From the NCBI RefSeq assembly GCF_003334355.1, contig NZ_QOWP01000110.1: a stretch of DNA of 386 nt, one strand, 5' to 3'. Below, piece by piece: positions 1 through 386 of the stretch. Under the pieces are notes generated by a model, which was not told where the DNA came from, made no database searches, and saw only the letters and a list, made by a program, of their open reading frames with translations. Origin of the DNA: Escherichia coli. Its GTDB lineage: Bacteria > Pseudomonadota > Gammaproteobacteria > Enterobacterales > Enterobacteriaceae. Made by a program: the position numbers and the translations under genes. The stretch's first letter is position 1, and each line of letters opens with the position of its first letter.

Positions 1-35
1 ATGCTTCCATCGGAAACGATGATCTGGCAGCCTGA
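1..35 (+). CDS. 3' end (last 10 codons plus stop) of an IS3-family orfB transposase, IS629-like; partial, 5' end outside the window
   Basis: Frame with codons starting at position 3 reads A-S-I-G-N-D-D-L-A-A-stop (TGA 33-35); positions 1-2 complete a codon begun outside the window. The stop lies about 40 bp inside the element terminus, as expected for orfB of IS3-family elements. Only 10 codons are visible, so the call depends on the adjacent inverted repeat and on recollection of the IS629 transposase C-terminus. Confidence 0.45.
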   Translation, partial: ASIGNDDLAA

Positions 36-52
36 GTTCACAGATAAAACAC

Positions 53-77
53 TCTCCAGGAAACCCGGGGCGGTTCA
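53..77 (+). repeat. Terminal inverted repeat (right end) of the IS629-like element, about 25 bp; inner boundary approximate
   Basis: + strand 53-77 is tctccaggaaacccggggcggttca; its complement TGAACCGCCCCGGGTTTCCTGGAGA starts with the IS3-family TG dinucleotide and contains the CCCGGG palindrome at 64-69. The 25-bp length is from memory of IS629-type repeats; the other end is not in the window for comparison. Confidence 0.45.
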
Positions 78-216
78 CTTTTCGCCAGTCCTGTAATTCC
101 ATACTTAGATGTCCGTCTATATCAGATGGGCGTCTAAGTTACCAATTCTCGTCTGATGGCTACATACGGCGGTCAGTTTACGCTTACGTGTCAAGAGGGA
201 TTTCTCAGCCCCTCAC
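78..216. other. 139-bp spacer between the two IS ends; no recognisable gene or RNA; probably a remnant of the original insertion target
   Basis: Bounded by the IS629-like terminus (…GGTTCA, 77) and the IS2-like terminus (TGGATTT…, 217). No ORF with a credible start and ribosome-binding site lies wholly inside it. It contains the near-repeat AGATGTCCGTCTA / AGATGGGCGTCTA and a small hairpin at 195-214. Confidence 0.5.
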
Positions 217-257
217 TGGATTTCCCCCTATATTTCCAGACACCTGTTATCACTTAA
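217..257 (-). repeat. IS2-like right inverted repeat (IRR), 41 bp; the outer terminus is at position 217
   Basis: Terminal TGG at 217-219 gives …CCA-3' on the transposase-sense strand, the IS3-family CA-3' end. The repeat contains the orfB stop codon at 228-230. Two positions, 224 and 243, differ from the canonical IRR as recalled. Confidence 0.7.
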
Positions 258-386
258 CCCATTACTGGCCCGCTGCCGTAGATATTCCCGTGGCGAGCGA
301 TAACCCAGTGCACTATGCGGATGCCATTCGTTATAATGCTCGAACGCCTCTGCAAGGTTCTTTGCTGCCGTTAACCCGTCTGGTTT
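228..386 (-). CDS. insD: C-terminal 52 codons plus stop of the IS2 orfB transposase (DDE/integrase-core protein); partial, N-terminus outside the window
   Basis: - strand translation from 386 down to 228: [52 protein letters not shown], with stop TAG (+ strand cta at 228-230). The …[18 protein letters not shown]… segment is the conserved C-terminal motif of IS3-family integrase-core transposases and matches the IS2 InsD C-terminus as I recall it, except Ser for Cys at the codon on + 264-266. Confidence 0.8.

Follow-up and report, generated by a model that had tools for sequence, protein, structure and literature searches.

The window analyzed here, a 386-nucleotide stretch of Escherichia coli DNA, is built from the ends of three insertion sequences (IS) and a short piece of non-IS DNA (Table 1). 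This anatomy is demonstrated by the data, and we have little doubt that the ends of three known IS have accumulated here in a CP4-type genomic island that has degraded. The initial annotation had recognized two of the ends, an IS629-like right end with its transposase on the plus strand and an IS2-like right end with its transposase on the minus strand, facing each other across 139 bp. Both ends, and the distance between them (78-216, 139 bp), are upheld by the alignments described below, but the picture of only two elements and a spacer is not, since 110 of the 139 bp (78-187) are the end of a third IS.

Table 1. Features of the window, with their coordinates, strands and the evidence that identifies them
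Feature	Positions	Strand	Evidence
IS629/IS1203 right end (IS3 family)	1-77	+	100% identity to annotated IS1203-family copies
IS66-family (ISEc23-like) left end	78-187	-	100% over 110 bp to tcmA_3 element
IS66-family tnpA codons 1-8 plus one base	78-102	-	translation MELQDWRK
Non-IS island DNA, 29 bp	188-216	no strand	exact copies in E. coli genomes
IS2-variant right end (IS3 family, IS2 group)	217-386	-	= IS2 positions 1331-1162
Private G->C, IS2-type IRR position 8	224	-	all other copies read TGGATTTG

Local alignment to loci of other genomes resolved the window into four segments. The loci used for comparison include those of E. coli PSS-12 (L001), E. coli strain tcmA_3 (L002), IncHI2 mcr plasmids from E. 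coli and Salmonella hosts (L003 and L004) and E. coli 1223 (L007), and the elements were named from RefSeq/PGAP and K-12 annotations. A megablast search with the whole window found pieces of it in 5049 of 5426 complete E. coli genomes at a median of 8 places per genome, which is the signature of repeated mobile DNA. Neither this search nor one of PLSDB plasmids revealed a collinear match to the whole window.

Positions 1-77 match, at 100% identity, the right end of a PSS-12 element 1310 bp long (L001 6001-6077). Its plus-strand coding sequence bears the annotation 'IS3-like element IS1203 family transposase' and finishes at locus position 6035, corresponding to window position 35. A second IS629-type copy, the “95.8%-diverged” one of tcmA_3, is also 100% identical across 1-77 and then continues into a different flank. 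Because the flanks of the PSS-12 and tcmA_3 copies differ, similarity stops at the element terminus, at 77 in PSS-12 and at 78 in tcmA_3, where one further base matches by chance. Within the window, the C-terminus of the orfB transposase (...ASIGNDDLAA) is encoded in frame 3, reading towards the element end at 77 and stopping at a TGA at 33-35. The terminus ...GGGGCGGTTCA finishes at 77 with the last bases ...GGTTCA, in keeping with the terminal 5'-TG...CA-3' of such elements, and identity to the annotated IS1203-family copies is 100% up to the terminal base, above the 95% required for assignment to a named element. IS629/IS1203, an IS3-family element of 1310 bp, occurs in Shigella sonnei and in E. 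coli O157 and O111, and a target duplication of 3-4 bp is expected at both of its ends. A literature search found no paper containing the IS629 inverted repeat (IR) string, and the naming thus follows the RefSeq annotation.

The adjoining 110 bp match tcmA_3 (L002 5001-5110) at 100% identity. In that strain they form the left end of an IS66-family element that is complete, with its tnpA, tnpB and tnpC genes on the minus strand. The terminal inverted repeat of this element starts with GTAAGCG, the tip typical of the IS66 family, which in the window is the reverse complement of 181-187; the complete tcmA_3 copy carries GTAAGCGT at the start of both ends. An untranslated leader (103-180) separates this tip from tnpA, whose ATG is the reverse complement of 100-102 and coincides with the annotated tcmA_3 start (L002 5025, window 102). 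The reverse complement of 78-102 reads ATG GAA TTA CAG GAC TGG CGA AAA G, giving MELQDWRK, and codons 1-8 are all that the window holds of a gene that in tcmA_3 belongs to the tnpA-tnpB-tnpC set following the identical left end. The tcmA_3 tnpA product passes NCBIfam NF047595 (81.4 bits versus a cut-off of 74), and relatives 98% identical over the whole element, which measures ~2.51 kb in its ISEc23-like form, bear the PGAP name 'IS66-like element ISEc23 family transposase'. Directly upstream of the tnpA start lies an imperfect 16-nt palindrome (103-118 / 124-139, 81% complementary, 5-nt gap), which may serve the IS as an operator or form a hairpin in its leader. The predicted fold of the leader (MFE -22.9 kcal/mol, z = -0.97) is not distinguishable from those of shuffled sequences.

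The IS629 end cuts tnpA 25 nt in, at codon 9, and breaks the reading frame at 77/78. From this truncation it follows directly that the IS66-family element was in place before IS629, and the insertion order, which had been called undecidable from the window, can therefore be read in part. The window includes the outer end of none of the three elements and accordingly shows none of their target duplications. We propose that an IS66-family element would first have entered the non-coding region of the island, its left terminus abutting GTGTCAAG (188-195), which would be the 8-bp duplication expected for an IS66-family insertion. IS629 would then have inserted into, or recombined against, this element within tnpA, inactivating the gene, and the remainder of the IS66-family element would later have been lost. 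The IS1203 copy of PSS-12 is flanked by …TGGC on one side versus CTT… on the other, with no target duplication, and it abuts a truncated IS2. Instead of a simple insertion into tnpA, recombination or an adjacent deletion could therefore have produced the 77/78 junction. No complete E. coli genome contains the complementary junction between the IS66-family element and an IS629 left end, constructed on the assumption of a 3-bp duplication. On its left, the PSS-12 copy adjoins position 340 of the truncated IS2, which is of the K-12 type, and the left tip of the copy (L001 4760-4775) reads CGAACC, not TGAACC, which means that the copy is rearranged or one base short.

The only DNA of the window that belongs to no IS is the non-coding stretch of 29 bp between the IS66-family terminus and the IS2-like tip. 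In a search with a query restricted to this junction (window 180-242), 188-217 (30 bp) was found exactly in 2803 of the 5426 complete E. coli genomes, nearly always on the chromosome. The remnant derives from a non-coding stretch, ~1.1 kb long, of CP4-type genomic islands. This stretch is bordered on one side by an 'inovirus Gp2 family' gene and on the other by an AlpA-like HTH gene, and YfjI is encoded nearby. Uninterrupted island copies (L005 and L006) read ...AGAGCT/GTGTCAAGAGGGATTTCTCAGCCCCTCAC/TCACCGGCTCAG..., with TCACCGG after the second slash, and so bracket both IS junctions, 187/188 and 216/217. These copies bear directly on the simplest alternative, in which two IS3-family elements would lie tail-to-tail in ordinary target DNA and the 139 bp between them would be intact host sequence. 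That model has both IS ends and their distance right, but 110 of its 139 bp are a perfect (100%) IS66-family left end, complete with terminus and tnpA start codon, and the island copies cover just 188-216; we give it virtually no chance, and 78-216 as an intact host spacer was rejected on these grounds. Whether the spacer is intact target DNA, previously called undecidable, can thus be answered in part: 79% of it is the third IS and 29 bp are non-IS DNA.

The closest relative of the window is PSS-12, which is identical (100%) to positions 1-217 and is the sole carrier of the 77/78 and 187/188 junctions among the 5426 complete E. coli genomes. One of its flanks aligns to cobS-cobU-yoeA of K-12 and the opposite flank to yoeD-yoeF-tmaR-yeeA-sbmC-dacD, and the K-12 site matching these flanks is annotated 'cryptic prophage CP4-44'. 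Judging from this single relative, through which the CP4-44 assignment is made, the window most likely lies at the CP4-44 site between cobU and tmaR/yeeX on an E. coli or Shigella chromosome. The earlier suggestion of an IS-rich accessory region is supported by PSS-12, where this DNA lies within a degraded island, rich in IS, at the CP4-44 locus. The 77/78 junction is absent from GTDB representative genomes, the pattern of the IS66-family end joined to the 29-bp remnant is absent from IMG/VR, and no record was found of the products of the two junction-spanning open reading frames. A different arrangement recurs in E. coli 1223 (L007 5001-5440) and many other E. coli chromosomes: 160 bp separate the left end of an IS66-family element from the right end of an IS2-like one, next to genes for a cytosine methyltransferase and a restriction endonuclease of the NotI family.

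The remainder of the window, 217-386, corresponds to the curated K-12 'insertion sequence:IS2A', positions 1331-1162, in a gapless alignment (96.5% identity, 170/170 positions aligned) and is 98.2-99.4% identical to a 1331-bp IS2 variant present in PSS-12, tcmA_3 and IncHI2 plasmids. Over its full length, this variant is 95.7-96.2% identical to K-12 IS2A. In each of five independent copies, no two of which share a flank, the element starts TGGATTT at the position of window 217, fixing the terminus where the initial annotation had placed it. On the minus strand, the frame from 386 to 231 is open for 52 codons and closes with a TAG at 228-230, 11 nt from the tip. The 52-aa translation aligns to positions 250-301 of the 301 of NCBIfam NF006918 'IS2 transposase TnpB' (E 7.8e-32), and the segment encodes the C-terminus of InsD/OrfB, ending inside the right inverted repeat (IRR). 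The IRR of IS2 is 41 bp long (PMC3299598), and its counterpart here occupies 217-257, with the tip TGGATTTCCCCC; the collinear identity to IS2 includes the IRR, which in IS2 begins TGGATTTGCCCC, with a single tip substitution, G8C. In IncHI2 plasmids, apparent IS2 similarity reaching 198 or 205 was discounted as gapped chance extension into unrelated flanks, and the terminus stays at 217. Conjugative IncHI2 mcr plasmids from both E. coli and Salmonella carry intact copies of the same variant (~96% to K-12 IS2), annotated only as 'IS3 family transposase'; these plasmids are a plausible vehicle for its spread.

The alignments of the IS629 and IS2 ends have E-values of 1e-36 and 1e-80 or better, which excludes chance as the source of the matches. 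The two segments, 1-77 and 217-386, are, as the initial annotation had it, different elements; they are unrelated and form neither a single element nor a composite transposon: the flanking ISs differ, their right ends point inward, and between them lie a dead IS fragment and 29 bp.

The G8C substitution is private to the window, whose IRR tip reads TGGATTTC where the other copies read TGGATTTG. An exact match to the 46-mer 217-262 is absent among 7748 places in the 5426 E. coli genomes, the best full-length match being 97.9%. The IRR is the donor end of IS2 and contains an 11-bp cleavage domain, random mutation of the A element of which abolishes circle formation (PMC3299598). The G->C change at window 224, IRR position 8, falls within the cleavage domain as defined in that study and may therefore impair the donor-end function of this copy.

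In PSS-12, island DNA runs 350 bp past window position 216 before an IS2-like copy is reached, and the 216/217 junction is thus lineage-specific. An exact copy of this junction is found neither in GTDB representatives nor in complete E. coli genomes or PLSDB plasmids, and the junction is absent from JGI metagenomes when either G or C is allowed at 224. The PSS-12 copy inserted simply, with duplication of 5 bp of the target, the length expected for IS2, and has the same orientation as that of the window. We infer that, as the third step of the proposed sequence, the IS2-like element of the window would have reached 216/217 either by an insertion duplicating 5 bp (expected CTCAC) or through loss of the 350 bp. 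A simple insertion predicts that CTCACTCACCGGCTCAG... follows the IS2-like left end, that is, the 5-bp duplication with island DNA continuing beyond it.

The second route, in which the IS2-like IRR of a PSS-12-like ancestor would have attacked nearby DNA in the same molecule and deleted the 350 bp, is conceivable, and we regard it with some doubt. The complete identity of 1-217 to PSS-12, the presence there of an equally oriented IS2-like copy at a distance of exactly 350 bp along the island DNA and the role of the IRR as the donor end of IS2 (PMC3299598) are all consistent with it. However, 3 of 171 positions distinguish the IS2-like end of the window from the PSS-12 copy, beside 217 adjoining bp that are identical, and at 2 of these 3 positions the window agrees with the plasmid-type variant. 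Such a distribution of differences fits a different copy better and favors independent insertion by another copy over deletion. A more elaborate version, in which the IRR deleted the 350 bp, G8C then crippled this end and froze the arrangement and the heptamer GGATTTC in the island DNA (198-204) guided targeting through its likeness to an IS end, we consider improbable. This heptamer is repeated 20 bp away in the IS2-like tip (218-224). In plasmid pMCR_170_D1, 21 bp separate a similar sequence, GGATTTACCC (L003 ~4001-4010), from the same IS end. Sequence resembling an IS end was found beside the IS2-variant end at 2 of 5 inspected sites, and the variant may insert beside such sequences.

The initial annotation had further suggested that both facing ends could direct weak transcription into the spacer, and a wider form of this idea would have the ends or the IS66-family leader drive transcription across it, for example antisense into the IS629 transposase or the tnpA stub. 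IS3-family right ends do carry the -35 element of a junction promoter, as described for IS2 (PMC3299598), and the leader (103-187, minus strand) must hold the IS66-family promoter, directed into the IS629 end. Against this, a sigma-70 consensus scan of the window found no promoter-like site on either strand (0 found, 0.4 expected), which gives the earlier suggestion no support. The junction promoter of IS2 has an obligatory 17-bp spacer and is made at the minicircle junction (PMC3299598); when its -35 element is placed, from the sequence, as TGGAAA (reverse complement of 233-238), the -10 position 17 bp away falls on TGAGGG, which matches 1 of the 6 bases of TATAAT. The leader, as noted, folds no better than shuffled sequence, no Rfam family reaches its threshold in the window, and conservation is not seen, a single other genome sharing part of the arrangement. 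We therefore judge a functional arrangement very improbable. One terminator-like site lies on the minus strand inside the IS629 IR, about as many as expected by chance, and a match to the AfaR sRNA (Rfam) at 141-194, over the IS66-family terminus, was dismissed as chance (19.1 bits versus a gathering score of 100, E 0.39). As judged from its sequence, the window is non-functional debris, and nothing in it requires a function beyond those of the parent elements.

The window illustrates that a short “spacer” between recognizable IS ends can be a truncated third IS. Recognition of the third end alters the inferred history, with the IS66-family element first and IS629 second, and removes the case for functional target DNA or outward promoters within the window. 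The window is mainly of use for marking a lineage, because only 1 of 5426 complete genomes shares its 77/78 and 187/188 junctions. Such IS debris also provides homology for further IS-mediated deletion or rearrangement and is a possible substrate of it.

Both E. coli and Shigella commonly carry such nested IS debris in their CP4-type islands, and the arrangement described here is known in kind. The window shares with IS629/IS1203 the right end, the orfB stop and the ...GGTTCA terminus, but holds the last 77 bp of the element alone. With complete ISEc23-like elements it has in common the left terminus, the leader, the tnpA start and the GTAAGCG tip, whereas only 110 bp are kept, and tnpB and tnpC are absent from both the window and the PSS-12 locus. 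Its IS2-type end has the same length class, IRR architecture and InsD C-terminus as K-12 IS2A, but belongs to a variant ~4% diverged from it and carries the private G->C at IRR position 8. The backbone of CP4-type islands is the source of the 29-bp remnant. CP4-44 of K-12 occupies the same cobU/yoeA - yoeD/yoeF/tmaR site as the PSS-12 arrangement, yet lacks the ~1.1-kb non-coding stretch that carries the remnant, and the island of PSS-12 has been almost entirely reduced to IS debris.
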